This document shows positions 7,770 through 60,376 of a stretch of 64,000 bases of DNA, piece after piece. This stretch comes from a virus, in the IMG/VR virus record IMGVR_UViG_3300034520_000378; one strand, 5' to 3'. Position numbers and translations under genes: made by a program. Under the pieces are notes generated by a model. It saw nothing but the letters and a program-made list of their open reading frames with translations. It was not told the DNA's origin and did no database searches. How positions within the stretch are numbered: position 1 is the first letter of the stretch; each line of letters begins with the position of its first letter.

Positions 7770-7790
7770 AATGCGTGTTACGCACCTCCT

Positions 7791-9839: not shown

Positions 9840-9846
9840 GCAATAG

Positions 9847-9881
9847 AAAAACCAGCCCCTGCTTACTCCTGGGCTGGTTTT
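9847..9881 (-). terminator. Rho-independent terminator ending the structural operon
   Basis: AAAACCAGCCC-12 nt-GGGCTGGTTTTT, just after the holin stop codon. Confidence 0.85.
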
Positions 9882-9887
9882 ACTTGT

Positions 9888-10205
9888 CTAGCTTCTTTTC
9901 ACTGCTATGTCCCATAACACGTCCAGCTTTTCCAGCATGCGCTGTGTGAACCGTGACTGGTCCTCTATAAGCCTTTCTAGTCTGTTGAGCATGTTTGTTT
10001 GGCTATCAATGACTGCTGACAGTGCATCAAGCTTTTCAGCGAACTGTTGAATGGTGTGCTCTATGGCATTGTTGCTTTTAACCAGGGCAATGAGTATCTT
10101 TGCCAGTATGACCATTACGTATATCAGTACGGCCAGTGCTATGTAGGCGATGCCGTACTGCCCCAGCATATCGAGCGGAATGTTTGGGAACTCCACCCCA
10201 TGCAC
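9888..10205 (-). CDS. Holin-like membrane protein (BhlA/UviB-like)
   Basis: One N-terminal TM segment 'GQYGIAYIALAVLIYVMVILAKILIAL' followed by a coiled coil. Last gene of the structural operon. Confidence 0.6.
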   Translation of the reverse strand: MHGVEFPNIPLDMLGQYGIAYIALAVLIYVMVILAKILIALVKSNNAIEHTIQQFAEKLDALSAVIDSQTNMLNRLERLIEDQSRFTQRMLEKLDVLWDIAVKRS

Positions 10206-10221
10206 CCCCTGTATGCTACAT

Positions 10222-11295: not shown

Positions 11296-11476
11296 TTATG
11301 AATTCCCCCATGACTATAGACTTCGCAAGCGTGTCGATCATCAGGGCCAGCTCGCTGGCGAAACTCTCTAGCCTCTCAATATCACAGCGTATGTCGTTCA
11401 TCATCTGGTTAACCTTGCGGCTTTCCATTGGTCCCCTGTACCTATGATTGACAAGTCTCATGACCGGTACTGCCAT
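11264..11476 (-). CDS. Small coiled-coil structural protein
   Basis: 'RYRGPMESRKVNQMMNDIRCDIERL', with a GGAGGT RBS before ATG 11476. Confidence 0.65.
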   Translation of the reverse strand: MAVPVMRLVNHRYRGPMESRKVNQMMNDIRCDIERLESFASELALMIDTLAKSIVMGEFINARKTDTVSQ

Positions 11477-11481
11477 GGTTT

Positions 11482-42013: not shown

Positions 42014-43963
42014 TTACGGCAGCCGCCAGGACGACGGCGGCAGGTATTCAAGCGGATCCACATGCTTACCGTTGATCCTGAGCTCAAAATGCAGATGCGG
42101 TCCGGTAGAGTTACCAGTACTGCCTTGATAGCCTATTACCTGGCCCTGATATACAGGCTCCCCTCGAGCTACAGTGACCGTTTTCATGTGCGCATACAGC
42201 GTTTCTATACCGTCGCCATGGTCGATTATGACATAGTGTCCGTAACCGTCACGGTCATAAGCTACCAGCTTTACCGTCCCGCTCGCCACAGCGAGGATCG
42301 GTGCCGGACTGTCTTTTTCGCTGAACGCCAGGTCAACACCCTTGTGCTCTCTGTAACCGCCAGATGACTTCTTCCTCTTCTCCCCAAATGCCGACGTTAC
42401 TGTACCCACCCTGTTCGATGGCGACCCAAACACCAGCACACCGCGGCTGGCTTGTATTGTTTGCTGTCCGGGTTCACCCTCCGCAATGCTGGGCGGTATG
42501 CGGTCGTTGTCATATGCTATGATATGTTTGCCACCAGTTATTCCAGCAACGAAATAGTTGCCCTTGAGGAACAGTGGGAATATCTTTATCCTGTTGAGGT
42601 TCTCAAAGAAGATACAGATCTTCCTCAGCGCTTTGTTGATGAGCTCAGTTACTAGGTATGTTATGACGAAGCTGACAATGCCTGCCGTTCCAATAGCTCT
42701 AATACCTGCTATTACACCCCGTATACCAGCTGAAATAGCTGCCACGGTTCTAGCAGTTTTAGCAGTCAGTATAGCGGCGCGTGCCGCTCTGTATGCCCCA
42801 ACAGCTGCGCTCATTACCTGTACAAGCCGTACCCTGTTCCAGCACACAAACGTACCAACCGCAAGTCCGTTCGTGATAATACGCGCCAGCGTGTTCGCCT
42901 TGCCATCCGTTGTTGTTATAAGATCAGGCTTGATAGAGGTGACAAACCCCGTCTCACCGGAAAACATGTACACCACACGCCCAACCTCGCACAGGCCGTA
43001 CATGTGGTTGACCGTGTCGTTAAGCGATATCATGTCATACGGCTTAATCCCCGGTATACCGCGCGTCACCAGCTCGCCACGGTACATGTCACGCATCCGT
43101 TCGGCCAGATAGTTGCGCCCGTATGCCAGCGCAACGTCCTCGCCCAGCGTAACCCCCAGAAAGCTGTACACCCCATCAGGGCCGAGTATGTCCTGCACCG
43201 TCCCTGAATCCACAATCTCCGTCTTCTGTAAGTCCGACCTTATGGTAAAGTCGGCGCGCACAATCGGCGATGTCTTGGGCGAGCTGCCGCGCGTGTATAT
43301 CACCGAGACGTTTGTGATAATGTCCCTCGAGCTTGCTATTACCTGGTTGTCTATGATATCGCTATGCGACGACAAGGCATGGAACTGCTGCATGGTAGTG
43401 TATACACACTCGTAGTTTTCGTATCCAGCAAACGGTCCCGATGCCTTATCGGAAACCCCTTCTATCCATTCTTTTATGTGCCCAATTGGGTCCTCGAAAA
43501 ACTCCTCTATCCATTTGTTGGCTTGGGCAGCCGGATTTGAGGGTTTATACACGTAGGCTTTAAGTTTCTGCCTGCCAAACTTAAGCGCCTCATTGCGGTC
43601 AGGAATGAATATGTCCAGTCGATACCCCTTGATAGCACCACCAGTGTCTTCGGCTATAAACCAACCCCTATTTGGCCAGTGTTGAAGCGCGGGAATGAAT
43701 ATCCTAGACCCGTAAGGGATAAGCTTTGGGTCAACCGCGATTGTACGGCCGTATGTAACTTTCGTACCTGTAGCCGTAATACCGCGCCCGTCCATCCCAG
43801 GATCATTTGCCGTATATGCCGTAACTATAAACTCAGCCTCTATATCCGCTTCTGCTATAAGCAGCTCCCAGGAGCCGCTCTTCATCGCAAGCCATACCTT
43901 TTCAAGAAAGGTAGCGGCATGTTGTGCAGTCTCTCCAATCCAGGAAGACAGCCCACCAGACAA
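42014..43963 (-). CDS. Baseplate hub/tail-associated lysin: 3D domain, hub segment and M23 peptidase
   Basis: 3D domain 'TAY...TATG...IAVDP..IPYGS...AEDTGGAIKG.RLDIF'. M23 domain 'HKGVDLA...YAHM...STGPHLHFE'. Confidence 0.9.
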   Translation of the reverse strand: MSGGLSSWIGETAQHAATFLEKVWLAMKSGSWELLIAEADIEAEFIVTAYTANDPGMDGRGITATGTKVTYGRTIAVDPKLIPYGSRIFIPALQHWPNRGWFIAEDTGGAIKGYRLDIFIPDRNEALKFGRQKLKAYVYKPSNPAAQANKWIEEFFEDPIGHIKEWIEGVSDKASGPFAGYENYECVYTTMQQFHALSSHSDIIDNQVIASSRDIITNVSVIYTRGSSPKTSPIVRADFTIRSDLQKTEIVDSGTVQDILGPDGVYSFLGVTLGEDVALAYGRNYLAERMRDMYRGELVTRGIPGIKPYDMISLNDTVNHMYGLCEVGRVVYMFSGETGFVTSIKPDLITTTDGKANTLARIITNGLAVGTFVCWNRVRLVQVMSAAVGAYRAARAAILTAKTARTVAAISAGIRGVIAGIRAIGTAGIVSFVITYLVTELINKALRKICIFFENLNRIKIFPLFLKGNYFVAGITGGKHIIAYDNDRIPPSIAEGEPGQQTIQASRGVLVFGSPSNRVGTVTSAFGEKRKKSSGGYREHKGVDLAFSEKDSPAPILAVASGTVKLVAYDRDGYGHYVIIDHGDGIETLYAHMKTVTVARGEPVYQGQVIGYQGSTGNSTGPHLHFELRINGKHVDPLEYLPPSSWRLP

Positions 43964-44003
43964 CTACAGTCATCCTCCCTTTTATCTCAAGCAGGCTCAA
44001 TGG

Positions 44004-45995
44004 TTACTTGAGCAGTGCGTTTATCTTGCTCCACGTTTGATACCCCACAATACCGTCGACCTTTAGGCCGTACCGCTTTTGGAACGCCTTGACAGCCGCC
44101 TCCGTCTTTGCACCAAAGATTCCGTCCACTTTGCCGCAGTTGAACCCCAGGCTGTTCAGCGCAGTCTGCAGGCGCGCTACCGCCTCGCCTTGGTCTCCAC
44201 GGCGCAGTGTCGGATAAGTGGACTGCTGCGTTGCGGTGCCACGACTCGACAGAGCCGCAGAAGAAGACAGCCCCACTCCGGGCAGCGCCATCCCCTTGCC
44301 GTTCTTGCGCCGGTACCTTATACACACAGGCCAGAACGGCATCCCGATAAACAGCGTTGACCTAAACTGAAATGGCAGAACTGCGGCTACATATCCATCA
44401 GCTGTTAGCGTACAAGTCTTGATAACATCCCATGGCGTCTTGTTAGCAAGGAATACGGACACATACGGCCCTGTAAAGATGGAAGTATCGCCCATGTACA
44501 CCTGAAGTGGAGGGCGCTGCGGTCCTGAAGCGTATACAGCCGCACCGCCTCTGCGCTGTGCTACACGGTCCGCTACACCCATCAACTTGTCACGCGGGTT
44601 GCCCTGCGTGCCGCCGCCCGATGAGGTGCCCATGTTTGCCGCATTGGGCGCGGACTGCGTCGCTACCTTCTTCCAGTGCTCGTTAAAGTCCGCACCAGCC
44701 AGCGTAAATGGATAGACGTTCAACATGACGTCCCATGTCTGTATCGTGCCCATCAACTGCGACGCAATCGTAAGAGGTGTCGTATGCTTTCGGACGGTCC
44801 CAAAGTGCTCTATGCCGTACGGGCTTGATGCGCCGTACTGATACTGACCCACTACATCGCCAGCCAGGGCGGAAAGTGTCCCGGGCCAGTTAAAATGAAA
44901 CCCCCAGCCACGCTTGGTCATTATGTTCCTTATGATACTGTCGGGCGTAAGGCCAAACTTGAACAGGCCGGTCTTGTCCTCGTCCGAGAAGCCGGGCATC
45001 GTGTTCATGAGTTCGTGCCCATCACCCTGTGCCACAAACGTGACTATTTCGTCAGCGTTTGCCTCAACTATTGTACCATTGAACAACACGGGCAGGCGCG
45101 ACGCCACAGCACCGTAACCCATACGTATGTGTACTCGCGTACCGGGATTTATGTTAAGCTCGTCAAGCAGTCTCTTGCGCGCATCAATGCTCTTTTTGTC
45201 TATCACTGTTGGAAGTATGTTCTTCAGCGCCTGGCCAAGCCAACTCTGATTGGTGTCAGATGTAGGTGTAAGCGGCTGACTATTCAGCGCGCCATACGTA
45301 TTCGTCACTTCTATGTAAGCAAGGTCAGCCGGATTCTTCCTGTCCTTCACTATGCTTATACCAACAAGGGAGTGGTAGAAGTAGAAGTTGTTCCACAGCT
45401 TGCGACCGCCTACCCACTCGCCTTCGTCAATGAACAGAATAAGGTACGTTGGGAACGCCTGAACCAGCCGGCCGCGTCCGCCATACGCCAGCTCATCGTG
45501 ATACATCATGTTGGATATCTGCTCCGGCGTGAACTTGGTCGGGTCTATATCGCTGTGCAGGTCGTATGCTTTCTCCTTTAACGGATGTACAAAATAGCAC
45601 GAATCCAAAGGCGCAAACCATGACGGTTTTTTGGTAGCATCAACCTGGGCACTGAGGAATGTCCCCGACGTCGACGCAGATCGTTCTGCAACAGGCTGCC
45701 CTGCTGATGTTTTTGATTCAAGTAGTTCGATTATCTTACCCCACGTCTGCGGCCCCACAATCCCGTCAACCTTCAAATTGTATGCACTTTGGAACGCCTT
45801 CACAGCAGCTTCCGTCTTGGGGCCGAATATACCGTCCACTGCTCCACAGTTAAAGCCGAGGGTATTCAAGGCCTCCTGTAGTGTCCTTACCGCTTCGCCA
45901 CGAGAACCTCTCCTCAATAGTGTTTTAGCGCTGTTGCGTAATAAGCCCACGGCACCACTGCTGCTGCCACCATCACTATGCATTGTAACAGCCAT
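44004..45995 (-). CDS. Baseplate hub-like protein flanked by two PG_binding_1 domains
   Basis: PG-binding units at both ends ('LRRG..GEAV..LQ..LN.LGFNCG.VDGIFG.KTEAAVKAFQ...LKVDGIVG.QTW') and a hub-like 'GTRVHIRMGYG...FNGTIVE...AQGDG'. Confidence 0.8.
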   Translation of the reverse strand: MAVTMHSDGGSSSGAVGLLRNSAKTLLRRGSRGEAVRTLQEALNTLGFNCGAVDGIFGPKTEAAVKAFQSAYNLKVDGIVGPQTWGKIIELLESKTSAGQPVAERSASTSGTFLSAQVDATKKPSWFAPLDSCYFVHPLKEKAYDLHSDIDPTKFTPEQISNMMYHDELAYGGRGRLVQAFPTYLILFIDEGEWVGGRKLWNNFYFYHSLVGISIVKDRKNPADLAYIEVTNTYGALNSQPLTPTSDTNQSWLGQALKNILPTVIDKKSIDARKRLLDELNINPGTRVHIRMGYGAVASRLPVLFNGTIVEANADEIVTFVAQGDGHELMNTMPGFSDEDKTGLFKFGLTPDSIIRNIMTKRGWGFHFNWPGTLSALAGDVVGQYQYGASSPYGIEHFGTVRKHTTPLTIASQLMGTIQTWDVMLNVYPFTLAGADFNEHWKKVATQSAPNAANMGTSSGGGTQGNPRDKLMGVADRVAQRRGGAAVYASGPQRPPLQVYMGDTSIFTGPYVSVFLANKTPWDVIKTCTLTADGYVAAVLPFQFRSTLFIGMPFWPVCIRYRRKNGKGMALPGVGLSSSAALSSRGTATQQSTYPTLRRGDQGEAVARLQTALNSLGFNCGKVDGIFGAKTEAAVKAFQKRYGLKVDGIVGYQTWSKINALLK

Positions 45996-46071
45996 GAGAA
46001 AACGCCATCTTAAGCCGCCGCTAAGGCGAGCAAAGACGGCTTAGACACCCCCTCTGTTCGTCTGATAATTA

Positions 46072-47781
46072 TCACAGCAGTTCATTGCTGTGGTACGAGT
46101 AGTCTATGTAAAAGTCAGGGTCGACAACAAGCGCTGGGCTGTCGTTCCACAGCGGATGCTTGTACGGCGTAAAGTTGATAGCGTTCAAGCCATAAGCCGC
46201 ACGCTGCTTGTTGATAAGCTCCATTGCATCAGCTACACGTGCATACGTCGGCAGGTCAAGATCGGGATAAAGGTCAAATACGTCTAGAATCTCCTCAACT
46301 AAGCACGCATGCTCTATCTCGGTCAGGTCTTTTAAATCGACAGTCGCTACCGCCTTGAGCACTTTGTCAATGTACTGCACGGCATGTATGCGTTCGTACT
46401 CACGCTGCATTTTGTCAAAGTCGACCATTGACAGCACTATCCTGTAAAGCCCGGCGCTCTCCGGTACGGTCTCCACCTCTATAGCATTGACGATTACGTA
46501 CCTTATCCCGAACAGGGCCGTAAGCTCGTTGTCAAATCCCAGAAAACCGCTCACAAACTTGTTCCGGTACTTTACCGAATACTCATCCGCAGTATCAATA
46601 AGCTGTTTGAGTGCCGCCACCGCATCTTTGTTTGCTGTCTCGAACGTGGCTATAACATGCTTCTCCATACCGCCTATGTACTGATGCGATGGCGTGGTGA
46701 AGGCTTGAATGTGCCCCGACGCAAACCTGTTTCCAATGGCAATAACCAGGTTCGTCAGTACAAGGTCGTCCGGCAGCGGTACGTCCACCATGTACGGGTC
46801 GGGCGACCAGCCGGGCACATCAGCCGCTATATTGCCCTTTGGAACAAGCGTTATCGTTCCCGATACCGGTTCGTAATACGTGTCATAGCCAAGGGTACTG
46901 GCAGTATCCCGTAGGGTCACAAATACTCTACCGTTGGCCGTTCTGTACGGTTTGAAGCTCCACGGGCCTATTACAATGTAGGGCGACTTCCAGTCCGTGG
47001 TAAGTCCGAGCTTCTGAGCAAGAATGCGCGCCTCAATGATGGGCTCGTCACGGCCATCTATCTTCACAATCTGATACTCGCTGCGATTAATCGTCTTCTT
47101 CGGCGTAGGACCCCGGTTGTGTGCAATCTCCTCTAAGACTTTGCTGTCAAGTATCCTGAACTTGTAGCGCGCAGTAAAATGCTCCGTCTCAACCGGTGCA
47201 AGATAATAAGCACTTTCGGGCTGCATCACCTGTTGGTAGTACCACCTGAACAGCGGCCATACAATCTTGTCAGCAAAACCGTAGTCAGGAATAAGCATGT
47301 ACGGCTCTATTGTGGTGGCGTACATTGCCAGCTTGGCCTCCAGAGCGCCAGGAAAGTTGGGCACGGTTGAGATGGTAAGCGAGTTAAGTGTCACGGTATG
47401 TATATCGTACACATCGTTAAGCGTTTCGTTGAATACTGGGACTATCGGTGCGCGCATGAAGTGCGCAATAAGGCTGCGCAGCCCGTCCATATAGTATGAC
47501 CGGCCGTCAACACCCTCAACCGCCACACCGTTTATGTCGTCCATGTCATTAAACCATAAGTCGACCCCAATCTCGGTCTGTGTGTTACCAGTCTTTGTGA
47601 TAATAGGCCCTCTCTGCCGTACACCCCATATGGTCTTATTACCGCTCACCTTTTTGACGTTTATACTGAGCGGTGGTATGCGCAAAAAACAGTCGCCCAC
47701 CTGCAGGTGGTCTGGCGAGAGCCCCACCCTGCCGGCCGGAATAAGGTCGTTACCCACCTTGATAAGCGGCTCGGAACGCAA
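46072..47781 (-). CDS. Tail/baseplate protein with an inserted copper-amine-oxidase N-terminal-like (stalk) domain
   Basis: Tube-initiator-like N-terminus 'IPPLSINV...RQRG' and an insert 'ANGRVFVTLRDTASTLGYDTYYE..SGTITL'. Confidence 0.6.
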   Translation of the reverse strand: MRSEPLIKVGNDLIPAGRVGLSPDHLQVGDCFLRIPPLSINVKKVSGNKTIWGVRQRGPIITKTGNTQTEIGVDLWFNDMDDINGVAVEGVDGRSYYMDGLRSLIAHFMRAPIVPVFNETLNDVYDIHTVTLNSLTISTVPNFPGALEAKLAMYATTIEPYMLIPDYGFADKIVWPLFRWYYQQVMQPESAYYLAPVETEHFTARYKFRILDSKVLEEIAHNRGPTPKKTINRSEYQIVKIDGRDEPIIEARILAQKLGLTTDWKSPYIVIGPWSFKPYRTANGRVFVTLRDTASTLGYDTYYEPVSGTITLVPKGNIAADVPGWSPDPYMVDVPLPDDLVLTNLVIAIGNRFASGHIQAFTTPSHQYIGGMEKHVIATFETANKDAVAALKQLIDTADEYSVKYRNKFVSGFLGFDNELTALFGIRYVIVNAIEVETVPESAGLYRIVLSMVDFDKMQREYERIHAVQYIDKVLKAVATVDLKDLTEIEHACLVEEILDVFDLYPDLDLPTYARVADAMELINKQRAAYGLNAINFTPYKHPLWNDSPALVVDPDFYIDYSYHSNELL

Positions 47782-47839: not shown

Positions 47840-50800
47840 TTAAACCCTGGCATATCCGTACTTCAGAAGCTGAGAGAACACTTCTTTGGCATAGTCCTCG
47901 TTAAGCTGTGACGTGTCGTTTGAGAAGTTGACGTTGACGTTCACATTGCCGTTAAACGCCTCGCTTGCTATGGCGTTAATGTCATTAGCAGACAGCCGCC
48001 GTTTTGTCCTGCCGCGTATGGTTATACGCGCACCGGTGTTTTCTACCGGGACAGGCCTCTGGTATACTTCACCCTGCTCACCTTCCGACATGGCAGGCGC
48101 AACAGGGATAGGTTTCTGAGCTCTGGCGTATCTGCCGCCACTGCTCTCCGGTTCTGTGTAGTCATCCTTGTCTCGTGGCCGCAGGAGTGCCATTAAGCCC
48201 AGACTAGCCAAGCCTATTCCCGCCAGCACCTTCCAGTTGCCTATCGCCGAGCCGAGCAGACCTCCGGCTCCACCGCCCGCACCAGCGGCACCGGAAGCTG
48301 ACTTGGCAGCCGCCTTGGCCTTGATGAAGTTGTTTATCTGCTTTATATGCTGTGCACCGGGCCCCTGTTTACCGCCCGCCGCAGCAGCTTGCGCTTTTAT
48401 GGCTTGATTTATTCGCCTTACTTCCTCTGCGCCTGGCGCAGCACTGGCCGCTTCTGCAGCACGCTGTGCTATATCCTCTGCTGCTTGTTGAGTAGCACTA
48501 CGCGCCGCCTGCTGAGCTGCTGCAGCATTGGCAGCTGCTGTATCAATTACATCAGCCGCTTGTCGCGCTACTGCCGCAGTAGTGGCTGTATCAACGACGT
48601 CAGCTGCTTGTTGTACCGCCGCAGCAGCCGCTTCTGTAACAGCATCAGCTGCGCCCTGCACCTGCTGTTCAAGTGGTCGGAACAAGCTGTACAGCCGTTC
48701 TTCAAAGTCCGCGAATCCCTTGCTACTGCCACTCTGTACCTTCTGCCTCAGTCCGGAATCCTTAACAAAATCCGCAAGTCCCCTGTCATCCCGTACTCTT
48801 AGTGAATAGCTTATCTCCTGCCTGAGTTCTGGATCCTTCAGCATTTCATACAGCTGTGCCTGCAGTTCGGAAAAGTCCAGTGTCGGCCGTCTAAACACTC
48901 GCTTTTGCTCAAACCTCCGTGGCTGTAGCTGGGAGAGATCCTGTATCGGCCGTCCGGGCACTCTCTTTTCCTTAAACTCTCGCAGCAGGTCAAACAACTG
49001 TTCCTGGAACTGCGGTGTTTGCTCCAGCTCAATCAGTTGTTTGAGTCCACCAAGCCTCTCGCCAAGCTGCTGCCTCAGGTTGCGGAACCGTACCAAAAAG
49101 CTCTCCGGATCCTGCGTCTCCACCAGCATCTTATCCGGTGTCGTTAGGTCTTCAAACAGAGTGTGGATACGGCGCCAGAGCTTTTCCTGCAGCGGCAGCT
49201 CCGGCGGCTCGTGCCGCACAACCTGAACAGGGATAGAACTCTGCAGCGGCACATGCGTTCCGGTAAGAGGATCTATCCCGCTTTTGACAGCAGTACTGAC
49301 ATCCACATCCGGCTTTAGGTGCCGCACAATAGCGTCCCGGACATGCCCTTCTACCGTGTCAGCGCCCGCTCTGGTATAATACAGAGCAATTTGCTCCAGC
49401 TGTTCGGGCGTAAAATCGCCGATACGCTTGAAGAATATGTCGCCAACGCCCGGGACATTGCCGGTCAGTGGTATGCGCATGTCCGCGCCGCTGCCCAGCA
49501 TCGCCCACGTTGGCCGCCTGTCTGCCCGCAGCTCTTTCTGCAATCGACTGCGCAGCTGCTCTAGCGCATCACCCATCTCAAACAATTCCAGGTCGGACTT
49601 TGTCAGAGGAACGGCGTTTGCATTGTATGCATCGCGCAACTGCTGAAACTCGTCTATTATCTGCTGGATGTTCGCCATATCCTCTGCGGGATTGGCCGAC
49701 AGCGGCGGTATAGAAACATCCTCTGTAGGTACGTTGGTAAGCACGTCAGCCGCTTCGCCGATAGCCGGCAGTGCTGCGATGTCTATACCGGCATCCTTCA
49801 GCTCCTGTATACCCCGCTCTAGCGCGTCCAGTCGGGCGCTAATCACCGGTCTTTGGCGCAGCCATTCCATAAACTGCGCACGTCCCTGTACGCCCTGCTT
49901 CTTAGCCTCAGCTGGTATGATGAAGCTGTCATATACCCAGTCGATGAAACGTGAAGCGGTTTGTTCGTCACGTATCGCCGGGATGTGCGCAGCTTCGAGA
50001 CTGGCTGCAAACTCGTCCAGCGCACCGCGCTGTGCTGCGTTGTATATGCTCTGCGCAAGCCCGTCCAAAGTGCGTACATTCTCATCCGCAATCCCGCACT
50101 GTCTGAAGTAGTCTATGAGGGAATATACCGCTTTTTTCCGGCCCTCCGGTGTTTTAGCGCTGCGCTCAACGTACTCGCGCAGCCTGCTGTACAACTCTTC
50201 AGGCACAACGGTGGGAATATGGATTTCACCTTTACCAACCGGAAGGCCGGTAAACTTGTACAAGCGATAGGGCGTGTACCGCGATACTTCCAGCCCAAGC
50301 TTCTTGCCGGTCTCGCCCTTTATGAAACCTCTCTTAAACTTCTCCCCGATCTGGCTGTAAAGCTGTCCCGGGTCCCCTTTCAGCACGCCTGCACCGTGGA
50401 GCATGACTATGTCTTCAGCAAGCGTCTTAAAAGCCTGGCCTTCCGGGCTGGCGAGCCATTCCTGCATGTGCGGCAGCATGTGCTTGTACATTGGCGAAAC
50501 GTCTCGCGTTAAGTAGTAGCGCATCTGGTCTACGGTCTTCTTGCTTATGTCACGCGACCCGGTACTACCAAGCATGGATACAAGCAGCTGCTCACCCGGT
50601 GTAAGCTGTGCACCACTGTCCAGTTTGTGTGCCGCTTCGAGTGTTTTGTCAATGATCGGCTGAAAAGCCTCCGGTCCTGCTGCACCCTGTCCGGTATACG
50701 CTACCAGCCGGCTCAGCTGCGGCAGCGAGGTCTTAATGCCGCGCACCTCGCGAGCTGTCAAATCAAGCACATCGTCCATAAAGATGTTCTTCGCTTCTTC

Positions 50801-53800
50801 AGCCGATGGAACGTATGCAAACTGCGAGTGGAAACGTTTGGCCAGGTCGGTAAAGCTCTCCGCTGCCACCTCGTCTATTATACCGGTGCCACGCCAGCGC
50901 CCTGCCTCGTCAAGATCGAGCCGCTCAGCTAGCGCATACAGTACACCGTCCCGCTCTTCTATGCCGCGAAAACGGTAGATACCCTTGGTTGCCGTATCGC
51001 CGGCAATTGGAGTGAGGTTGCCTATAACGCGATCTGGAACGGTATGTCGGTACAACAGATCGCCTTTGCGCAGCGGTCTTATATCCGCTTCAGCCGGCAG
51101 TGCAGTTGAAATACCAGCATCAAGTACTGTAAGCGCGTCACTCTTTGCTGGCAGGTCAAACACGCTTCGTACGGTATAAGTGTCTATCTTGGGCTTCCTA
51201 AACAGGCTGGTCAAAGTGCGCTCAAACCGCGGCGCCGCTTCCGGTGCACTTGTGCGCACCATACCAACAGCCTCAGCATATGTCTTACCAAGGTCTGGAC
51301 CGGCAACATAGTCAACGCTCTGTTTAATCCTGCGTAGGTTCGCTATGGTATCGTCAAGCACCTCGTCCGGTGCAGCAGCTGCTTCCGGGACCGCGAGGTT
51401 TATAACCTCCGGTGCGCCGACAAGCTCGGAGATAATGCGGCCGTCGTCACCACGGCTGTAGCGCACCAGTTGTACATTCAGTCCGGTGGTGGCTGCGCCT
51501 TCTGCTGCCTGTACCGGCGTGATAACCGCAACTGTGTATGGCCGCCTGCTAACGTTAGCCTTTAGCCTGGTCAGCGTGCCAAGCGTCTCATCAACGGTCA
51601 CACCCCCGCTGGGCGGTGTCGCCCGCTCCAGAACAATACCGCCACCCCTGGTAAGGCGCTCATATCCCGGCGGAGTCAGATTGGGAATACCCTGTGTTGG
51701 TTTAAAGACTTCAAACTCGTCCAGCAGTCCCGCCGTCAGCTCATCCATACCGCTTACAAGATAGTGCTCACCGGTAAGCACATCGCTGGCGATTATGTCA
51801 CCGCCCGTGCCGCGCTCAAGCGTTACGGGATGCCAGACATTGCTCTGTTTGACATACGTCTTAAGCTTTACCTTGCCGCCGGACTTCTCACTTAAGTCAA
51901 ACAGAGTACTGATTCGTTCCTGGCGCTCACGCTCAGGTACGCCGGACAGGTCTATCTCGTACCTAACCGGCTGAGTGATGTCCATTGTTTCCTGAGCTGC
52001 TTGTGCCGCACTTTCGCCCGCCTCTTCCGGCAGCTCAAGCTCGTACACCAGCCCGCTGTCCACAACCTCGTCTGCTACATCTTCCACAATGCCTTCCACA
52101 CGGTTTGTGTCAAGAGTGACATCCCTACCTGCCAGCCTGCCGGTTGACGAACCTTCGGCCAGTGTGACAAGCGACTCCTCCTCAACCGGCCTTTGTTTTA
52201 GGTACCTGGCTATCTCGGCCGGCTTCATGTCTGCAATGTACTGCAGATGCTCGATACCGCTAGTGACATCACTATCGCCGGCCTCGCGAACAAGACTAAC
52301 AACAGCGTCGTGTATAAGCTTGGCCTTCTCCAGGTCGGTCAGCTCGCGCACCCTACCGCCCTCTATGACGGTAAGCCCCTTGAGCTTGCTGCCTATAGTC
52401 GCTATTGCGCTGTACTCGTCACTTGCTGCACGCAGGTCGGTAGCAAACAGCTCGCCCAACAGCGCACGACGGTAGGTCTTCCGAAATACCGCGTTCCTGG
52501 CTACCCCAGCAGGATTGTATGCATCTATCTTGCCCGCAATCGATGCGCGGCTGATCGCCCTGTTCAATGCAAGCCAGCTTGACGATACGATGTCAACATC
52601 CTCGTACTTGCCTTTGGCCCATGGCGCAACGCTCAGCGCTGTTTTGAGTAGGTACGCGTTTACGTCCTCATCCGTTAGCTGTGCAACTGCTTTCTCTGCC
52701 TCTGCTGCAGCCAGGCTCCTGATTATCTCTGCCGTGTTGACAACGCTAACTCTTCCCGGTGCTGTTGCGCCAAATACTTCGCTTACACCGCCGCCCCACT
52801 CTATGTTTCGGTATGCGCCTTTGACCTCTTTTGCGAAGAAGCGCGCCATCGCCTCACGCTGCTCGCGGGTCTGTATTGCCTCCACCGCACCGGGCTCGAT
52901 CTCAACGACTATGCGCGTCTCTGCAGGCAGTTTTTGTGCCGCCAGAGTAACGACACCCTGTTCTTCGTCGATACTTGTTATGCGGAACGGCACAGCACTG
53001 CCGGCTATCATGACCTTTTGGTCAAGGTCGCGCGCTTCAAGCCATCTCGTGCGGCGCTCGGCCAGCTTCGCAGCTGGAACTTCACGATACAGGCTCTCCA
53101 CCTGCTGCCCCTCAGCCAGGTATGCAGCACGTGCGCGCACCAGCTCTGTACCGCCACCACCCAGCTGGAGCTTTTTACCGAACTTAAGCGCTTCAACAGT
53201 CTCATCTGTTTGTGCCTGCACCTGAGCTATCTCCGCTGCTACGGCATCGCGGCCCGGCCCCTGTGGCGTGCGGTTAGAAGACAGCAGGCCTATCTTCTCA
53301 AGATACGCCACTTCTTCTTTGCTGTACGCATTGGTCATACTGAGGAAGTGCGTCTTCATTTCGTCTTCAAACTCTTGAGCAGCGGTTTTGTACGCCTCCC
53401 TCAGCACCGAACTCGTGCTCTTATAGACACCCCGCGCCCTGTTCAGCCGCAGGCGTATGGACTCGATGATATTGCGGTTTGCAACGTCCGTGCCGACCAG
53501 CGCTTCAACATCACTGAACTGCTGCGTGAGCGCCTGGAATCTCCCCTCCAGCTGCTGGAACCGCGCCAACAGGCCCGTCCTTGTCAGCTCGTCTTCCAGC
53601 TTCTTCAGCCTGTTGAAATCCTCTGGCGCAAGCGATCTTGCCGCCTTCAAGCGCTTATATGTGGCGTAGTCCCAGCTTTTTTGCTGCAGGTCTTTGAAAT
53701 CGTCCAATAACCTGCGGAGCTGGCTGTCGTATTCCCTGAGCCGCTGTATTGAGACGCCACGCTCAATCTCGGCACGACCAATTACATCAATACCGCCTTC

Positions 53801-54121
53801 TACCAGTTCCTGCAAGAAGCTTTTCGCCCGACCCACATGGATCGGTTCTATCAATATGTCTTCAAACGATATCTCGCCCGGCTTGTATCCAGCGCGCTCA
53901 ATCAGCTTCCTTGTTTCCTCCTGTATAGCTTGTATCATGCTAACAGGATGGGGATTGACCTTTGTGCGGAGCGTCTCGAAGAACTCATCAGCCACTTCAT
54001 CGCTGTGCACAAAGGATAAGACGCGGACGGCGTCCAGCACGCTGCTAACCAGCGTGCTTGCATACTTCTCAGATACCTGTTCGAGATATTGTGGGTTGAA
54101 TATGTGCGGGTTCAGGCGCAA
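47840..54121 (-). CDS. 2,093-aa giant helical virion or ejected protein of unknown function
   Basis: Long ORF in the tail operon, with an A/Q-rich repeat region and one TM helix ('WKVLAGIGLASLGLMALL') near the C-terminus. Confidence 0.75.
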   Translation of the reverse strand: MRLNPHIFNPQYLEQVSEKYASTLVSSVLDAVRVLSFVHSDEVADEFFETLRTKVNPHPVSMIQAIQEETRKLIERAGYKPGEISFEDILIEPIHVGRAKSFLQELVEGGIDVIGRAEIERGVSIQRLREYDSQLRRLLDDFKDLQQKSWDYATYKRLKAARSLAPEDFNRLKKLEDELTRTGLLARFQQLEGRFQALTQQFSDVEALVGTDVANRNIIESIRLRLNRARGVYKSTSSVLREAYKTAAQEFEDEMKTHFLSMTNAYSKEEVAYLEKIGLLSSNRTPQGPGRDAVAAEIAQVQAQTDETVEALKFGKKLQLGGGGTELVRARAAYLAEGQQVESLYREVPAAKLAERRTRWLEARDLDQKVMIAGSAVPFRITSIDEEQGVVTLAAQKLPAETRIVVEIEPGAVEAIQTREQREAMARFFAKEVKGAYRNIEWGGGVSEVFGATAPGRVSVVNTAEIIRSLAAAEAEKAVAQLTDEDVNAYLLKTALSVAPWAKGKYEDVDIVSSSWLALNRAISRASIAGKIDAYNPAGVARNAVFRKTYRRALLGELFATDLRAASDEYSAIATIGSKLKGLTVIEGGRVRELTDLEKAKLIHDAVVSLVREAGDSDVTSGIEHLQYIADMKPAEIARYLKQRPVEEESLVTLAEGSSTGRLAGRDVTLDTNRVEGIVEDVADEVVDSGLVYELELPEEAGESAAQAAQETMDITQPVRYEIDLSGVPERERQERISTLFDLSEKSGGKVKLKTYVKQSNVWHPVTLERGTGGDIIASDVLTGEHYLVSGMDELTAGLLDEFEVFKPTQGIPNLTPPGYERLTRGGGIVLERATPPSGGVTVDETLGTLTRLKANVSRRPYTVAVITPVQAAEGAATTGLNVQLVRYSRGDDGRIISELVGAPEVINLAVPEAAAAPDEVLDDTIANLRRIKQSVDYVAGPDLGKTYAEAVGMVRTSAPEAAPRFERTLTSLFRKPKIDTYTVRSVFDLPAKSDALTVLDAGISTALPAEADIRPLRKGDLLYRHTVPDRVIGNLTPIAGDTATKGIYRFRGIEERDGVLYALAERLDLDEAGRWRGTGIIDEVAAESFTDLAKRFHSQFAYVPSAEEAKNIFMDDVLDLTAREVRGIKTSLPQLSRLVAYTGQGAAGPEAFQPIIDKTLEAAHKLDSGAQLTPGEQLLVSMLGSTGSRDISKKTVDQMRYYLTRDVSPMYKHMLPHMQEWLASPEGQAFKTLAEDIVMLHGAGVLKGDPGQLYSQIGEKFKRGFIKGETGKKLGLEVSRYTPYRLYKFTGLPVGKGEIHIPTVVPEELYSRLREYVERSAKTPEGRKKAVYSLIDYFRQCGIADENVRTLDGLAQSIYNAAQRGALDEFAASLEAAHIPAIRDEQTASRFIDWVYDSFIIPAEAKKQGVQGRAQFMEWLRQRPVISARLDALERGIQELKDAGIDIAALPAIGEAADVLTNVPTEDVSIPPLSANPAEDMANIQQIIDEFQQLRDAYNANAVPLTKSDLELFEMGDALEQLRSRLQKELRADRRPTWAMLGSGADMRIPLTGNVPGVGDIFFKRIGDFTPEQLEQIALYYTRAGADTVEGHVRDAIVRHLKPDVDVSTAVKSGIDPLTGTHVPLQSSIPVQVVRHEPPELPLQEKLWRRIHTLFEDLTTPDKMLVETQDPESFLVRFRNLRQQLGERLGGLKQLIELEQTPQFQEQLFDLLREFKEKRVPGRPIQDLSQLQPRRFEQKRVFRRPTLDFSELQAQLYEMLKDPELRQEISYSLRVRDDRGLADFVKDSGLRQKVQSGSSKGFADFEERLYSLFRPLEQQVQGAADAVTEAAAAAVQQAADVVDTATTAAVARQAADVIDTAAANAAAAQQAARSATQQAAEDIAQRAAEAASAAPGAEEVRRINQAIKAQAAAAGGKQGPGAQHIKQINNFIKAKAAAKSASGAAGAGGGAGGLLGSAIGNWKVLAGIGLASLGLMALLRPRDKDDYTEPESSGGRYARAQKPIPVAPAMSEGEQGEVYQRPVPVENTGARITIRGRTKRRLSANDINAIASEAFNGNVNVNVNFSNDTSQLNEDYAKEVFSQLLKYGYARV

Positions 54122-54132: not shown

Positions 54133-57100
54133 CTAATCAGCAAGCAGCATTGCGGGATCTCTGTTGATGTATTCAACCAGGTCACGCGACATGTCATAGC
54201 CCATATGCATGTTGACTTCTATGCCGGCCTTGTCGCTCGGCTCAACATTCACGTCTATGTCTTCTACACCAGCAGCGGAGAGCAGCCTGCGCAGCCGCTC
54301 GGCAATCTCACCAGCATTACCGGGCGTGCGCATATTCATCTTGGGCACGCGTACCGGTACCTGCTGCGCTCTCAGCTTGTCTTCCTCCCAAATGTCAAAC
54401 TCGCCTGGGTCAAGATGCATTTTGTCCACCAGCTTGACGCGCACCGCTTCAAGGTCTACATCCGGACGCCAGCCTTCCCAGGACTCGTCCGGTAGATAGT
54501 GCGTCTTAAAGTATTCCTCAAGCTTGGGCTTCTTTGGTGCTTTATCACCGTGCGCAGGCGCAAGGCCGTAGAACAGCCATTCCGGTGCAACCTTCTTGAG
54601 CTTTTTGTACTCCCACTTGGGCATCTTGAGGAAGTAGCGGAAGTAGCGCCGCTCCTTCTTGGGCAGCGCGACGATAAAGTCACCCAGCGGTTCGCCAGGC
54701 TCGTAACCATACATCGTCTGCTTCATCTGCCTGTAGTAGGCAATCGCCCTTCGCGCCCGCGGTGGTAAGTCCTCTTCAGACACCTCTGGAGACGTCTTCA
54801 GACTGGCAAGCTCGGCATTAATGCTCTTTATGGCGAGCTTCTTCAGCTCGTCCAGCGACCGCTGCACTCTCTTTGCCTTTTCCTTTTCGTCAGCTTCTTC
54901 AGCCTGCGCTCTTGCAAGCTCGTTGGCCTGTTTTATTTCCAGTGCTGCGGTTTCTTGTTCTGTCCTCTTAACAGCTTTGCGTGCCTTTTTCTTGTCATCC
55001 TCTACAGCAAGACGTATGTTATACTTCCTGAGTATCTCAAACAGTTCATCTGTTTGATTGCCCTTCAGCTTCTGTATGGCGCGCTTTGCCTCCATGAGCG
55101 CCCTTTTACGCGCCTTCACGAGCTCCTTGTGCTTGTCCCGCGCTTCAAAGTACTTCTGTACATCAAAGCCCTCTTCTTCAAGCGCACGCTTGCGTTCATG
55201 CTCATACAGACGTCTGTACTTTACGTACTTGAGAATATCAACGTATTGCTCCAGCTCCCACTCGCGCCGCCTCCTGGCCGGAATCCACTTCTTGCCCGTT
55301 ACAACTTGATATGCGGTAGTATACAAGGCCCCGGCACCAACAGTGGCAGCGCCAATCGCCGCACCTATTACCCTGGTCGCCGGTCTTCTCCCGAATAGAG
55401 CACCTATACCCGCACCTAAAAGCATCGCAATAGGCAGGGGCTTAGAGATGAACGACTGGTATGTCGGTATGAGAAAGTCCCTTATGGGGTGCTCCCAGCT
55501 CTGAAAGTTCTTGCCGTATACCTCACGCCTTACCCAGTCCTCATATGCACTGCGCACCTGGAGAAACTTGGTATGAATGGGCGTGTCAAGGTGGGAATTA
55601 TGGACAGCGCATACAAGAGTTGTATAGCTATGATTATCCTCTACTGTGAAGTCGTACACCAGTTTACCTTCGTATTTGACTTCTTCTACTTCTTTAATCC
55701 TGGCGAAGAGAACTCCATCCTGAATAAATGCCCAGCCATTAGTCTCTCGTTTTGATGAAGGTATCTCTTTGCCAAGCAGTTTGGCTAGTTCTCTACCCTG
55801 TTTCCCACCAATGTGCAACATATACCGTTTCTTATGGATGGTGCCGCTTACATCCTTACGAGCCTCCGCTATATGCAGACCCGGTATGAATCCTAAATTC
55901 AGCAACACCATCCTCATAGGAATGATTATGTTAGGCTGGACAGAAACACAGGATACAGTTTCACCTATATGGCCATCGCCGCGGAAATAGCCAACCACCA
56001 ACCCCTTTAGAGCCTCTAAGTCATCAGTAAGTGCTTCCGTGCTAAGCCGTTTATCGACAGTACGCCCCAAAAGTGCATTAAAGAACTCGGTTACTATAGA
56101 ATTCCCAAGGTGCACTATCTGCACATTACAACTGGGCTGATAATGAACAGTGCAACTTACCCCAAACACCTTGCGTGCGCACTCAATAACCTCATTGGCG
56201 TATTCAGTTTCGTTAATGTGAAAAGCAAACTGAACAGCTACAGGTTTGCCTCGCTGAAGCTTAATATGTCCCTCGCTTAGATAGTAACCGAAAAGTGTAT
56301 ACAGCTCACGGGAAACCGGAATGTAGCGATCGACTGGGACACTACTCTTTCTAATAGCGTTTGGATTAAATCCTCCTACTTTAAGGTAGATTTTGTCGTC
56401 GATCACAACCTTGTTGCTTAGGTCAATATAGTCAACAAGGTCAAAAACACGCCTCTTTGGAAGCTTCGCAATAGGCATACACACCCAGTCGTCCTTGCGT
56501 AACTCCTCGGCCTTTATCCATGTTGGTTTATAGGCCGCAGGACAGCCATCACGACATATACTTCGACCAGGAGCACATACGCCGGGCCGGCACCCATTGG
56601 AACCCTTCACAAAAGGACATGACTGCGCTTTGGCGGCATACACCTCATGATTGCCGGTTAGTACTAATGCGTCACTAGTCATCCATGTCCGAATGCGGTA
56701 AACTTTCTCTGATTCGGCTAGCGGACGCTTATGAACACAGACTACCTTATGCCAATTGCCATCCGTAGTGAGCACCAAATCGCCCAGTTTCACTTCCTTA
56801 GCCTGTTTTAGATCATCGTGAGTTACAATTAGCTGGTTTTCGCTGACGCAGAACCGCTCCCATGCCTTACCGAAGGCCCTCTCAAGCCGGCTGAAGCGCG
56901 CCATCACGGCAGCAGGTGAGTAGTCCTTCTCTTTTTCCTTGGCAACCTTCTCCTTAAGCAGGAGCCTGTTGATGTTCTCGCCCTTCACGTATACAACCGC
57001 TTTGATGGGGCTGTAGTCCTTCCTGGCTTTTCTTTCATCATCCGGTTCGTAGTAGATCACTATCTTGGTACCGGGCTTCAGCTTGCTCTGCAGGAGCTCC

Positions 57101-60100
57101 GCTGCACGCTGCGCAGCTTTGTCATCCTTCGCACCGGCAACGTGTATGCCAGCAAACTTTATGGGGATATTAGGCAGTTCCTTGACAAAGATGGTATTGT
57201 TGTCAGCCAGGGACTCTACTGTTACAACACGCTTTTTCAGCTCACGCTCGGCACCAACAAACCTGTAGGGATATATCCTGAGTGGCTCCTTCATCTTGCG
57301 GACCATTTCGCGGATCCGCTTTACCTCTTCCTTCTGCTCGGGCGTGAGCTTTATCTTGCTCATCAGCTTGCTGTACTCTTTGTACTCTTTGCTGTATGGC
57401 GCAACATGTGCTAAGATACGGAACCTGTCCAGAGGGCCGTACAGTTCATAGCGGTTTATGACGCCTTTCTTGTGGAGCTCAATAATCTCAGGATGCTCCT
57501 TGAGGAACCTGGTAAAGTCCTTGTTGTACAACGCCTCATAACCGCCACCGGGAAGCAGCATCTCGCCGTGAGGTAAATACGAATCGCCAGTATGGAAGTC
57601 TATATAATAGTCACGCGGCAGCCACGATGGCATGCGATTGGGAACCGGATTAAACATCTCGCCCCATTTCTCTCTTCTGCCGATAAAGCGCCGCACAATC
57701 TCGTTTACGTTACCGCCAAGCCCGCCCAGGTTTTCCTCCCAGAACCGCCGCCTAATGGAGTATATACCGCGCGCCTCTGCAATGCGTACTTCCTTGTCCT
57801 TGGGCACGTCCTGCGATATACCTGTCGCAGTTTCGGCAAGGAAACCGTAGAAGCCCGCAACCTCGGTAACACTCGACCAAAAGGCCCGCGCTACATCCCT
57901 CGCACTCCCGGGAGCTGTATACTTGCGTCCGTACTCGTCAACTATGTCGCCCTCGGGTGTGATCTCTACACGTACACCACCGGACGTGATGTAGCCACCT
58001 TCAGTGGTCTCTTCTTCGGGCTCTCCAGCCGTTTCGTGTCTTTCAGCTGTCCCTTCCGGCTGTCCAGCTGCACCCTCTAGCCCTCCAACTGCTCCGTATC
58101 CTCCCGATGGCCCGGCTGCTGCCCCGCCACTGGCAGGCGGCTCCACAACTAGGTACTCTCCCTCAGGCAGTTCTCCCTCTGGCCGCCCCTCAAGCTGCGC
58201 CCAAACCTCGGGATGCATCTTCTTCCTCGGCTTTATAAGCCTGCTCACGGCTGTGAGGAGAGGGCCTATAATCGGCAGCTCAACCAGTTCGGGATAATCA
58301 CCAGTGTAGAGGTATGGCCTCTCGTAATAGTGTTTTTCTTCCAGCCAGTACCTGTCCGTCACATATCGCTTAATTGGCGCGGTAGGATAGCGCGGCGTGG
58401 GGATAGGAGCATGAGCAAAGTATTCATCCTCGCTGCCGTACAGGACATCCGTGTACTTCCACTTGGACTTCAGCCGTCGGTACCAGTTGGGTCGCCACGC
58501 CTGGATGCGCCCACCAGTAAAGGGAGTATTTCCCAGCGGCCAATAGCGCCCTTTCCTGACGGGTTCCTCGCCGCTCTCAAACCATTCCTCCATCTCCTCA
58601 GGCGTCTTGGTCATCCAGATGGTGGCATCCTTGACAATCGGCAGCTCGAGGATCTGGTCAGAACCGGGCGTGAGCTGTTGCAGCCTGTCCATAAATCCGG
58701 TCAGGCCGATAGCACTGCTGAGCCGTGACAGTGCAGTCATGGTATACCGATAGGCGTCTGCCAGCAGGAATTCCGGCCTTACACCGGTCAGCTTCTCCAT
58801 CTCGTAATTCAGATAGTGCCATCCGAAAGCAAGGCCGCCAAGCACGAGTGCGCGGCGCAGGAACAGATTGGTGAAGAGGCTGAGCGTGTCACCGGTATGC
58901 TTGGACGATAACCCTAGCCGCGCTTTACCAAGTGAAAGATCCATCCGACCCACGCCTATGTACGGTATGAGCGTTAGCGTGGACACATCCTGAAGTCTGT
59001 GCCGCCCCGCAGTCAGCTGCTTCCAGATCGAACCTAACGAGCTGAAGTCGGCAGCATTAACATAGACCCATGGTTGTTCAATAAAACGCTTTGTGGCCGG
59101 TGGTATGTGGCTCGCACGCTCGGGCCCCAGTGCGTCTATAATCTTACCTATACCGGCCTCCATTGCCTCGAACAGCGGGTTTTCCGCCTCTTTTCTACCA
59201 AGAAACCCTAGCCTTGGATCGTCCCACAGGAATGTGTCCTGGTAGCCTATGTCGAGGGCTCTAAACAGCGGGTCCAGTAAACCTCTCACACCACCGCGCT
59301 TTGTATACTCGTTCATCTCCAGACCCGCCATAGTGCGGATATACTGCAACTTTACGTTACCCAAGCCGTGTATCAAATAGCCCAGCCCTTTGTTTACCTT
59401 TACAAGATCGTCCAGCTTCTGCGGGATGTTCCCTACATCAAACACTTCGCCGCCGATGAACAACAGCTGTCGCCCCAGCTCGTCTATATTACCGGTAAGC
59501 AGCGGCTGACGCTCTGTCACATCAAACAGATAGGTGAATGGACTCCTGTTGATGCCAAGCACGTCGCTCAGGTGCAAAAGTCCAAGGGGATTAAAGTTGA
59601 CTATCGGGATCTGGATATCTTTCTCCAGCCGCTGTATGAACTTTGTAAGCTGTTCGCTCATGCCGCGCATGTCAATCAGTTCGCCGGCCTCATTTATGAA
59701 CAGCGCCGGGTCGACAATAATATTCCCACCGGACAGGCCATAGATCTTTGCAAGCTGTTTCAGCCTGGCAAACTCGGGGACATTAAGCTGCATGATATCG
59801 TCCAGTACTGCATACCTAACCCCGGCAACCTTCTGCATCATGCTCTGCAGCTTGGCATTCGGAGTGAGACGCTTTTGGATCTGCTCCACAATCTTGGCTT
59901 TAACAACGTCCACACCTTGATCGATTGCAGTCTGTGTAACCCCATGCTGCGCGCCCCACGAACTCTTCAGATCGTCAAGCACATCCCGTGATTGTCTCAA
60001 TATCTCTTCCAGATAGAAGTGCGGTTTTTGAGTGCCGTGCTTGTTTTTCACAGCGCTTACAACATACCTTTTTAGTTCTGATGCCTTTCCAAGTGCGGAA

Positions 60101-60360
60101 AGATTCTGCCCCTGCCCCTTGGTGACGTAGTGCTCCCACTGGTATACTCCTTCTATAGCACGCGCAACAGGGCCGGGCTTGTATTTGCTGCTCAGCACCA
60201 TCGTCTTTTGAACGGATGCCTTTAAAAGACCGGTGCGCCAAAACAGGTATCCCCCGGCCAGCAGCCCGCCAACAAGCAGGGCCGTGTTGACCGCCGAACC
60301 TTTTTCCTGCTCCTTTTCGCTGTAGTAGTATGCGTCCTCCCGTTTCCTGTACTTTGCCAT
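54133..60360 (-). CDS. Giant tape-measure-like/ejected membrane protein with an SNase-like domain and an intein
   Basis: Lies after the chaperone-like ORFs and has several TM/glycine-zipper segments. Likely start ATG 60360 (the track gives 60375). Confidence 0.75.
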   Translation of the reverse strand: MAKYRKREDAYYYSEKEQEKGSAVNTALLVGGLLAGGYLFWRTGLLKASVQKTMVLSSKYKPGPVARAIEGVYQWEHYVTKGQGQNLSALGKASELKRYVVSAVKNKHGTQKPHFYLEEILRQSRDVLDDLKSSWGAQHGVTQTAIDQGVDVVKAKIVEQIQKRLTPNAKLQSMMQKVAGVRYAVLDDIMQLNVPEFARLKQLAKIYGLSGGNIIVDPALFINEAGELIDMRGMSEQLTKFIQRLEKDIQIPIVNFNPLGLLHLSDVLGINRSPFTYLFDVTERQPLLTGNIDELGRQLLFIGGEVFDVGNIPQKLDDLVKVNKGLGYLIHGLGNVKLQYIRTMAGLEMNEYTKRGGVRGLLDPLFRALDIGYQDTFLWDDPRLGFLGRKEAENPLFEAMEAGIGKIIDALGPERASHIPPATKRFIEQPWVYVNAADFSSLGSIWKQLTAGRHRLQDVSTLTLIPYIGVGRMDLSLGKARLGLSSKHTGDTLSLFTNLFLRRALVLGGLAFGWHYLNYEMEKLTGVRPEFLLADAYRYTMTALSRLSSAIGLTGFMDRLQQLTPGSDQILELPIVKDATIWMTKTPEEMEEWFESGEEPVRKGRYWPLGNTPFTGGRIQAWRPNWYRRLKSKWKYTDVLYGSEDEYFAHAPIPTPRYPTAPIKRYVTDRYWLEEKHYYERPYLYTGDYPELVELPIIGPLLTAVSRLIKPRKKMHPEVWAQLEGRPEGELPEGEYLVVEPPASGGAAAGPSGGYGAVGGLEGAAGQPEGTAERHETAGEPEEETTEGGYITSGGVRVEITPEGDIVDEYGRKYTAPGSARDVARAFWSSVTEVAGFYGFLAETATGISQDVPKDKEVRIAEARGIYSIRRRFWEENLGGLGGNVNEIVRRFIGRREKWGEMFNPVPNRMPSWLPRDYYIDFHTGDSYLPHGEMLLPGGGYEALYNKDFTRFLKEHPEIIELHKKGVINRYELYGPLDRFRILAHVAPYSKEYKEYSKLMSKIKLTPEQKEEVKRIREMVRKMKEPLRIYPYRFVGAERELKKRVVTVESLADNNTIFVKELPNIPIKFAGIHVAGAKDDKAAQRAAELLQSKLKPGTKIVIYYEPDDERKARKDYSPIKAVVYVKGENINRLLLKEKVAKEKEKDYSPAAVMARFSRLERAFGKAWERFCVSENQLIVTHDDLKQAKEVKLGDLVLTTDGNWHKVVCVHKRPLAESEKVYRIRTWMTSDALVLTGNHEVYAAKAQSCPFVKGSNGCRPGVCAPGRSICRDGCPAAYKPTWIKAEELRKDDWVCMPIAKLPKRRVFDLVDYIDLSNKVVIDDKIYLKVGGFNPNAIRKSSVPVDRYIPVSRELYTLFGYYLSEGHIKLQRGKPVAVQFAFHINETEYANEVIECARKVFGVSCTVHYQPSCNVQIVHLGNSIVTEFFNALLGRTVDKRLSTEALTDDLEALKGLVVGYFRGDGHIGETVSCVSVQPNIIIPMRMVLLNLGFIPGLHIAEARKDVSGTIHKKRYMLHIGGKQGRELAKLLGKEIPSSKRETNGWAFIQDGVLFARIKEVEEVKYEGKLVYDFTVEDNHSYTTLVCAVHNSHLDTPIHTKFLQVRSAYEDWVRREVYGKNFQSWEHPIRDFLIPTYQSFISKPLPIAMLLGAGIGALFGRRPATRVIGAAIGAATVGAGALYTTAYQVVTGKKWIPARRRREWELEQYVDILKYVKYRRLYEHERKRALEEEGFDVQKYFEARDKHKELVKARKRALMEAKRAIQKLKGNQTDELFEILRKYNIRLAVEDDKKKARKAVKRTEQETAALEIKQANELARAQAEEADEKEKAKRVQRSLDELKKLAIKSINAELASLKTSPEVSEEDLPPRARRAIAYYRQMKQTMYGYEPGEPLGDFIVALPKKERRYFRYFLKMPKWEYKKLKKVAPEWLFYGLAPAHGDKAPKKPKLEEYFKTHYLPDESWEGWRPDVDLEAVRVKLVDKMHLDPGEFDIWEEDKLRAQQVPVRVPKMNMRTPGNAGEIAERLRRLLSAAGVEDIDVNVEPSDKAGIEVNMHMGYDMSRDLVEYINRDPAMLLAD
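55597..56850 (-). mobile_element. Intein (418 aa) with a LAGLIDADG homing endonuclease
   Basis: N-junction F|CVSENQLI, block B 'LTGNH', LAGLIDADG blocks 'LFGYYLSEG' and 'VVGYFRGDG', and C-junction 'VYDFTVEDNHSY...VHN|S'. Visibly more AT-rich than its flanks. Confidence 0.95.
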
Positions 60361-60376
60361 ATAAAAAGACCGCACC

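Follow-up and report, generated by a model that had tools for sequence, protein, structure and literature searches.

Does a giant tail protein of a phage carry a piece of a sigma factor? The question is raised by a 64,000-nucleotide stretch of viral DNA (IMG/VR record IMGVR_UViG_3300034520_000378; hereafter the window). A preliminary description made from the sequence had picked out by eye a segment resembling sigma regions 2 and 3 inside a virion protein, and had suggested that this protein is ejected at infection and delivers a sigma-like module to the host RNA polymerase. On the best explanation of the data, the phage is a Bacillota jumbo myovirus of the 0305phi8-36 type, the open reading frame (ORF) encodes its gp146-type giant tail protein, and aa 463-644 make up a compact helical insert that is conserved and has two lobes. 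According to the structural models, the first lobe (aa 463-567) is most likely a real sigma-2-type four-helix fold, reached by very remote descent or by convergence. The evidence below supports the preliminary reading in part: a sigma-2-like fold, and not a demonstrable sigma factor, lies in a tape-measure-type protein.

The segment and the protein that contains it

The plus strand of positions 52105-52680 is riddled with stop codons, and the open frame lies on the minus strand only. The ORF and its parts are as follows.

47840-54121, minus strand: giant virion-module protein of 2,093 aa (P0001)
52421-52735, minus strand: lobe 1, aa 463-567, a predicted four-helix domain with a sigma-2-like fold
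52190-52417, minus strand: lobe 2, aa 569-644 (the "region 3" of the preliminary description), predicted as a helix, a beta-hairpin and three helices
51962-52189, minus strand: acidic linker, aa 645-720, with low confidence in the model and poor conservation
47843-48238, minus strand: C-terminal module, aa 1962-2093, the most conserved block of the family

The strings on which the sigma proposal was based are present on the minus strand at aa 488-671 (window 52109-52660, within 52105-52680), embedded in the 2,093-aa ORF, and the plus strand is closed; the original sequence observation was therefore correct. As to the transmembrane anchor mentioned with it, the C-terminal module has a hydrophobic stretch of 16 residues (aa 1965-1980; window 48182-48229). 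Lobe 1 is predicted to consist of four helices (aa 463-475, 484-498, 508-528 and 544-567) and a further short one (aa 537-542). The acidic linker, which includes the quoted "EEE...VTLD", is 25% D+E, and the pLDDT of the segment model is below 50 from model residue 206 onward, in the linker. The 2,093-aa protein matched no family in Pfam or PHROG, and these searches detected in it no array of enzymatic or anti-defence domains, the hallmark of injected polyvalent proteins.

The family is rare. When 1.84 billion representative proteins were searched exhaustively by HMMER, with aa 440-720 as the query, only three true relatives emerged, P0002, P0003 and P0004, which share 49%, 34% and 31% identity with P0001; all three are about 1,900-1,960 aa long and are encoded in the same gene order as P0001 on metagenome contigs. 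P0005, also returned by the exhaustive search, was discarded because it is a cellular protein with SdrD repeats whose genomic surroundings are not those of a phage. Whole-protein tblastn against 50,697 phage records gave no match, a scan of IMG/VR with the domain alignment gave no relatives, and a word index queried with aa 440-720 and with aa 1940-2093 gave P0002 only. The cluster of the 2,093-aa protein was found on a contig of 213,643 bases. Across the four family members, the segment lies within one of the better conserved blocks; P-W at aa 500-501, D510, I511, S515, W516, A518, Y550, L554, L555 and F559 are invariant, and conservation drops after about aa 644, leaving the linker poorly conserved.

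A distant counterpart of gp146

The ORF is part of a minus-strand virion module. In the order of transcription, it is preceded by genes for a 689-aa protein with five PG_binding_1 repeats, a 290-aa protein and a 2,080-aa giant with an intein; it is followed by genes of 569, 663 and 649 aa and then by gpV-like OB-fold, gp25-like and Baseplate_J genes. Through the 569-aa neighbour, the phage is connected both with Moorella phage MTATph1 and with the jumbo Bacillus phages of the 0305phi8-36 group. The flanking genes have the following counterparts.

54133-60375, minus strand: 2,080-aa giant, orthologue of 0305phi8-36 gp145 (BLASTP E 7.6e-84 and 2.5e-77)
42014-47781, minus strand: three genes (569, 663 and 649 aa) that jointly correspond to the gp147 hub/lysin of 0305phi8-36

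Genes of tail-chaperone size stand before the gp145 orthologue. Positions 128-337, 911-1153 and 1282-1466 of phrog_20474 (1,954 positions) match the three downstream genes in order; these genes carry PG_binding_1, 3D and Peptidase_M23 (Pfam), and tblastn gave a match to ORF147. The gp147 of 0305phi8-36 is a single gene of 1,903 aa, and the window has three separate genes. In 0305phi8-36 (EF583821), the order is chaperonins gp143/gp144, gp145, gp146, the gp147 hub and the gpV-like gene. With the gp145 orthologue upstream and the hub/lysin downstream, the 2,093-aa ORF occupies the gp146 slot.

EF583821 annotates gp146 (ORF146) as "hypothetical tape measure protein", and both gp145 and gp146 are flagged in this GenBank record as virion proteins by mass spectrometry. 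In the study of Hardies et al. (PMC2147016), orf146 received the tape-measure role mainly because it correlates with tail length, and conservation among relatives was confined to its last 60 residues; the family of the 2,093-aa ORF repeats this pattern, its C-terminal end being the best conserved. Profile comparison (hhalign) of the ORF with the gp146 family gave three matches.

ORF aa 359-526 with gp146 609-816, P 8.5e-5
ORF aa 989-1316 with gp146 1690-2004, P 1.6e-4
ORF aa 2029-2091 with gp146 2475-2534, P 3.6e-3

These matches are co-linear, and the one at aa 359-526 takes in the first half of lobe 1. BLASTP pieces against gp146 fall in the same co-linear order, the domain HMM (A1) matches gp146 aa 775-817, and the C-terminal module of the ORF can be aligned to the final 60 residues of gp146. 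The domain HMM had no match to the domain in the gp146-slot proteins of WH1, KLEB27-3 and MTATph1. Judged by these alignments, the relation between the ORF and gp146 appears weak, yet consistent. From the gp146 slot and the co-linear matches together, it follows that the ORF itself is a distant, syntenic counterpart of gp146, the assigned tape measure of the 0305phi8-36 lineage. The preliminary description had placed it next to a tape-measure-like gene; it is the ORF that stands in the tape-measure slot, and the giant upstream is the gp145 orthologue. The product of the ORF would likewise be a virion protein; the detection in virions by mass spectrometry is that of gp146 itself. That the ORF might be a paralogue of the neighbouring 2,080-aa giant was rejected by BLASTP.

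The gp145 orthologue, a virion structural protein, is split by an intein of about 417 aa (window 55597-56847, minus strand), which is recognised by Intein_splicing and LAGLIDADG_3 (Pfam) and by a jump of the BLASTP query from 1176 to 1594 at gp145 residue 1489. On the contig of P0003, the giant in the gp145 slot (3062-8905; 1,947 aa) has a Peptidase_S8 domain, and the copy in the window is without it. In the region 7742-15098 of MTATph1 (OR602862), the gp146-slot gene has just 1,309 aa and is followed by a transposase gene, two short ORFs and then the hub/lysin gene, so it is possibly a gp146-type gene that an insertion sequence has interrupted.

Sequence similarity to sigma factors

Profile similarity to sigma regions 2 and 3, the check that had been proposed together with the sigma reading, was not found. 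The segment of all four orthologues gave no Pfam match to Sigma70_r2 (PF04542), r3 or r4 at E<=10, a PHROGs search of the segment gave no match, and a PDB search with the single sequence and with the four-sequence profile matched no sigma chain. A sigma HMM run without filters (--max) on the 422 ORFs of the window had no match to the giant ORF at E<=10; the same HMM found one sigma, the ORF at 3602-4453 (E 1.2e-10). Shallow RpoE-only and FliA-only profiles were uninformative, since even the positive control, FliA against RpoE region 2, was missed; they were replaced by a diverse sigma profile, built from RpoE and FliA sets together with sigma genes taken from three genomes. Against this profile, hhalign gave the segment a score of 16.4 and a probability of 0.3%; scores of 12-18 were obtained for nineteen further 200-aa stretches of this protein, and the phage's own sigma, entered as a single sequence as a positive control, reached 89.5%. 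BLASTP showed the segment and this sigma to be unrelated. As far as sequence statistics can tell, the match seen by eye is no better than chance.

The features that distinguish a sigma factor are also not recognisable. In sigma factors, region 2.2 binds the clamp helices of beta', and the -10 element is read and melted by aromatic and polar residues of regions 2.3/2.4. A single alignment register, without statistical significance, was obtained for the segment; in it S-S replaces the polar Q-E pair of region 2.2, the acidic D is kept, and the aromatic W-W pair of region 2.3 is absent. The region 3 half of the proposal found no support: it has no Pfam match, and within the segment model lobe 2 (model residues 120-204) resembles generic helical bundles only, with no sigma chain listed among its matches. 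For region 4, the helix-turn-helix that recognises the -35 element and binds the beta flap, neither Sigma70_r4 nor r4_2 was matched in Pfam, and both confident structure and conservation end at about aa 644. The phage meanwhile encodes a sigma factor elsewhere in the window.

3602-4453, minus strand: conventional phage sigma, 283 aa (Pfam Sigma70_r4, E 3.1e-9)

Pfam region 2 gave no match in this protein. Its gene adjoins genes for RuvC, a PD-(D/E)XK nuclease, a DnaB-like helicase and a primase. No recognised sigma factor was reported for 0305phi8-36 (PMC2147016). With no region 4, no recognisable region 3, no profile similarity and no recognisable Q-E or W-W pair, and with a sigma of the phage's own at hand, lobe 1 is probably not a working sigma factor.

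Predicted structure of the segment

In the ESM Atlas, the nearest clusters to the 200-aa segment are small viral (phage) and Bacillota proteins (score 0.94), in which Sigma70_r2 occurs in 10-29% of the members, and the Sigma70_r2 family set is found on 25 of the 30 named neighbours; of the 256 features only 134 are shared, as is usual for distant relatives or chance hits. The comparison of models with known structures, also part of the original proposal, gave a divided result. The model of the whole segment had no clear match in the PDB (Foldseek, VIA-align), and a clear sigma signal emerged only from a separate, confident model of lobe 1 (aa 458-572; pLDDT 83, pTM 0.77). For this model, sigma domain 2 accounts for about 22 of the 50 best rows among 48,161 PDB representatives, and these rows span groups 1-4, SigI and T4 gp55 (sigma28, SigE, sigma70, sigmaA, pro-sigmaK, sigma32, SigI, several ECF sigmas, SigB, sigmaS and T4 gp55). 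A second look at the Foldseek candidates for lobe 1 gave sigma factors in all 50 rows. The alignments cover 73-77 residues at 2.5-3.0 Å, the sigma domain itself having about 75-80; one example takes in sigma70 residues 376-446, nearly the whole of sigma domain 2. They also fit the register proposed by eye, in which regions 2.1, 2.2 and 2.3/2.4 correspond to aa 484-498, 508-528 and 544-567, respectively.

The strength of these matches is limited: Z is at most 6, below the level deemed reliable for helical domains, the Foldseek E-values are at least 1.5, and the models of lobe 1 and of the segment were built on four sequences. Nor are AlphaFold2, ESM and the reading by eye independent of one another, because all draw on one sequence pattern. 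The top PDB row for lobe 1 was the Set2 SRI domain (48,161 representatives), which reportedly resembles sigma domain 2. The best match in BFVD was A7KUS0_1, a 1,268-residue piece (E 0.047, probability 0.82) that, going by its accession range, may be a protein of 0305phi8-36. The sigma-2 signal of the modelled lobe 1 thus appears specific but modest. Of the two sigma-like regions originally described, region 2 survives as a predicted likeness of fold, and region 3 is unsupported; every sequence test for sigma membership was negative for both.

The likeness could also be spurious. Lobe 1 may be an ordinary helical stretch of a long, mostly helical tail protein, bearing no relation to sigma, and the resemblance may come from a common small helical arrangement and from networks exposed to many sigma structures. 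The segment would then be an ordinary conserved block of a fast-diverging tape measure. We regard this explanation as unlikely, if still deserving of weight. Chance poorly explains why a single domain should fill about 22 of the 50 best rows from 48,161 representatives and all 50 rows of the second look, and the likeness extends over nearly the whole domain at 2.5-3.0 Å. Sigma domain 2 is, moreover, the domain that had been predicted beforehand from the sequence.

Comparison with known systems

The closest known protein is gp146 of 0305phi8-36, which shares the slot, the giant size and three co-linear matches, including that at aa 359-526 with its A-P-W motif, and whose last 60 residues match the C-terminus of the ORF. 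The two differ in length (2,537 aa in gp146 and 2,093 aa here), and their identity is below 25%, so that the relation is seen by profile or position only; a sigma-like domain is unreported in gp146. The tape-measure role of gp146 itself comes from a length correlated with tail length (PMC2147016).

Compared with domain 2 of sigma-70 factors (sigmaS 7f0r_F, SigE 8b3z, sigma70 1sig_A and Taq sigmaA 3ugo/3ugp), lobe 1 has longer loops at aa 499-507 and 529-545 and lacks profile similarity, and the residues that typify regions 2.2 and 2.3 are unrecognisable. Unlike in sigma-70, the domain sits inside a 2,093-aa virion protein, without region 4 and with region 3 unsupported. T4 gp55, a late sigma, is essentially one sigma-2-like domain, but it is a free protein made during infection that works with gp33 and the sliding clamp, outside the virion.

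Folded modules embedded in tape measures are a known kind, as are transcription proteins delivered by virions. The tape measure of mycobacteriophage TM4 carries an Rpf-like motif, and T5 pb2 carries a peptidase. As in the present case, a folded module lies within a tape measure, and in TM4 and T5 it is active after expulsion; these modules, however, target peptidoglycan and not the transcription machinery. Two further comparisons are virion-delivered transcription proteins, such as the N4 vRNAP and the virion RNA polymerases of phiKZ and AR9, and injected polyvalent proteins (PMC7598289, PMC5312081, PMC7824862). They are alike in that pre-made proteins enter alongside the DNA and take over early events, but those systems consist of polymerases or enzyme arrays carried for the most part in the head, whereas no enzyme domain was detected here and a single sigma-2-like fold is predicted. 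No description of a sigma-2-like fold in a tape-measure-type protein turned up in a non-exhaustive search of the literature. If the fold is real, it would be, to our knowledge, the first sigma-like domain within a virion tail protein.

Possible role of the insert

We tentatively favour a gp146-type giant tail protein whose insert has a genuine sigma-2-type fold and serves as a docking module, not as a sigma factor. The protein would sit in the tail tube and contribute to tail length. Upon contraction of the sheath, it would be the first to exit, and its C-terminal hydrophobic stretch would go into the membrane. The helical insert may dock a protein partner, either during assembly of the tail or after ejection.

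The partner could instead be the host RNA polymerase itself. After ejection, lobe 1 would bind the clamp helices of beta', as sigma domain 2 does, and act as a decoy or competitor that blocks the host sigma; alternatively, it would serve as a specificity factor with a sigma-2 domain only, comparable to T4 gp55. This is the delivery idea of the preliminary description, restricted to region 2. If the sigma-2 fold is real, it would suggest that some Bacillota jumbo phages bring an RNA-polymerase-binding module into the cell with their DNA, a third route to seize host transcription besides injected polymerases and early-expressed factors. It would also give the first functional handle on the gp146-type giants, which are conserved across the 0305phi8-36 lineage and have no known domains. 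Weighing against binding to the polymerase are the absence of profile similarity to every sigma region, the replacement of Q-E by S-S and the loss of W-W in a statistically insignificant register, the missing region 4 and unsupported region 3, and the phage's possession of a conventional sigma of its own; moreover, no part of a myovirus tape-measure-type protein is known to reach the cytoplasm. A predicted complex of aa 484-644 with B. subtilis beta' 190-360 scored 0.10 (mark 0.32), which counts as no answer and speaks neither way. Taken together, we consider binding to the polymerase improbable. The fullest form of the idea, that a diverged sigma domain 2 is expelled at the start of infection and grips the beta' clamp helices before phage gene expression, thereby displacing the host sigma or priming the polymerase for phage promoters, is more improbable still.

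Other features of the window

A third giant in the window, of 2,035 aa (23884-29991, minus strand), has domains of the von Willebrand factor A and fibronectin type III kinds; its PHROG match is phrog_21285, a virion structural protein. Under orf164 of 0305phi8-36, a von Willebrand factor domain has been described (PMC2147016). At the edge of the window, a tyrosine integrase is encoded (1-963, plus strand; Phage_integrase E 1.2e-28) in what otherwise looks like a jumbo genome of the lytic type.
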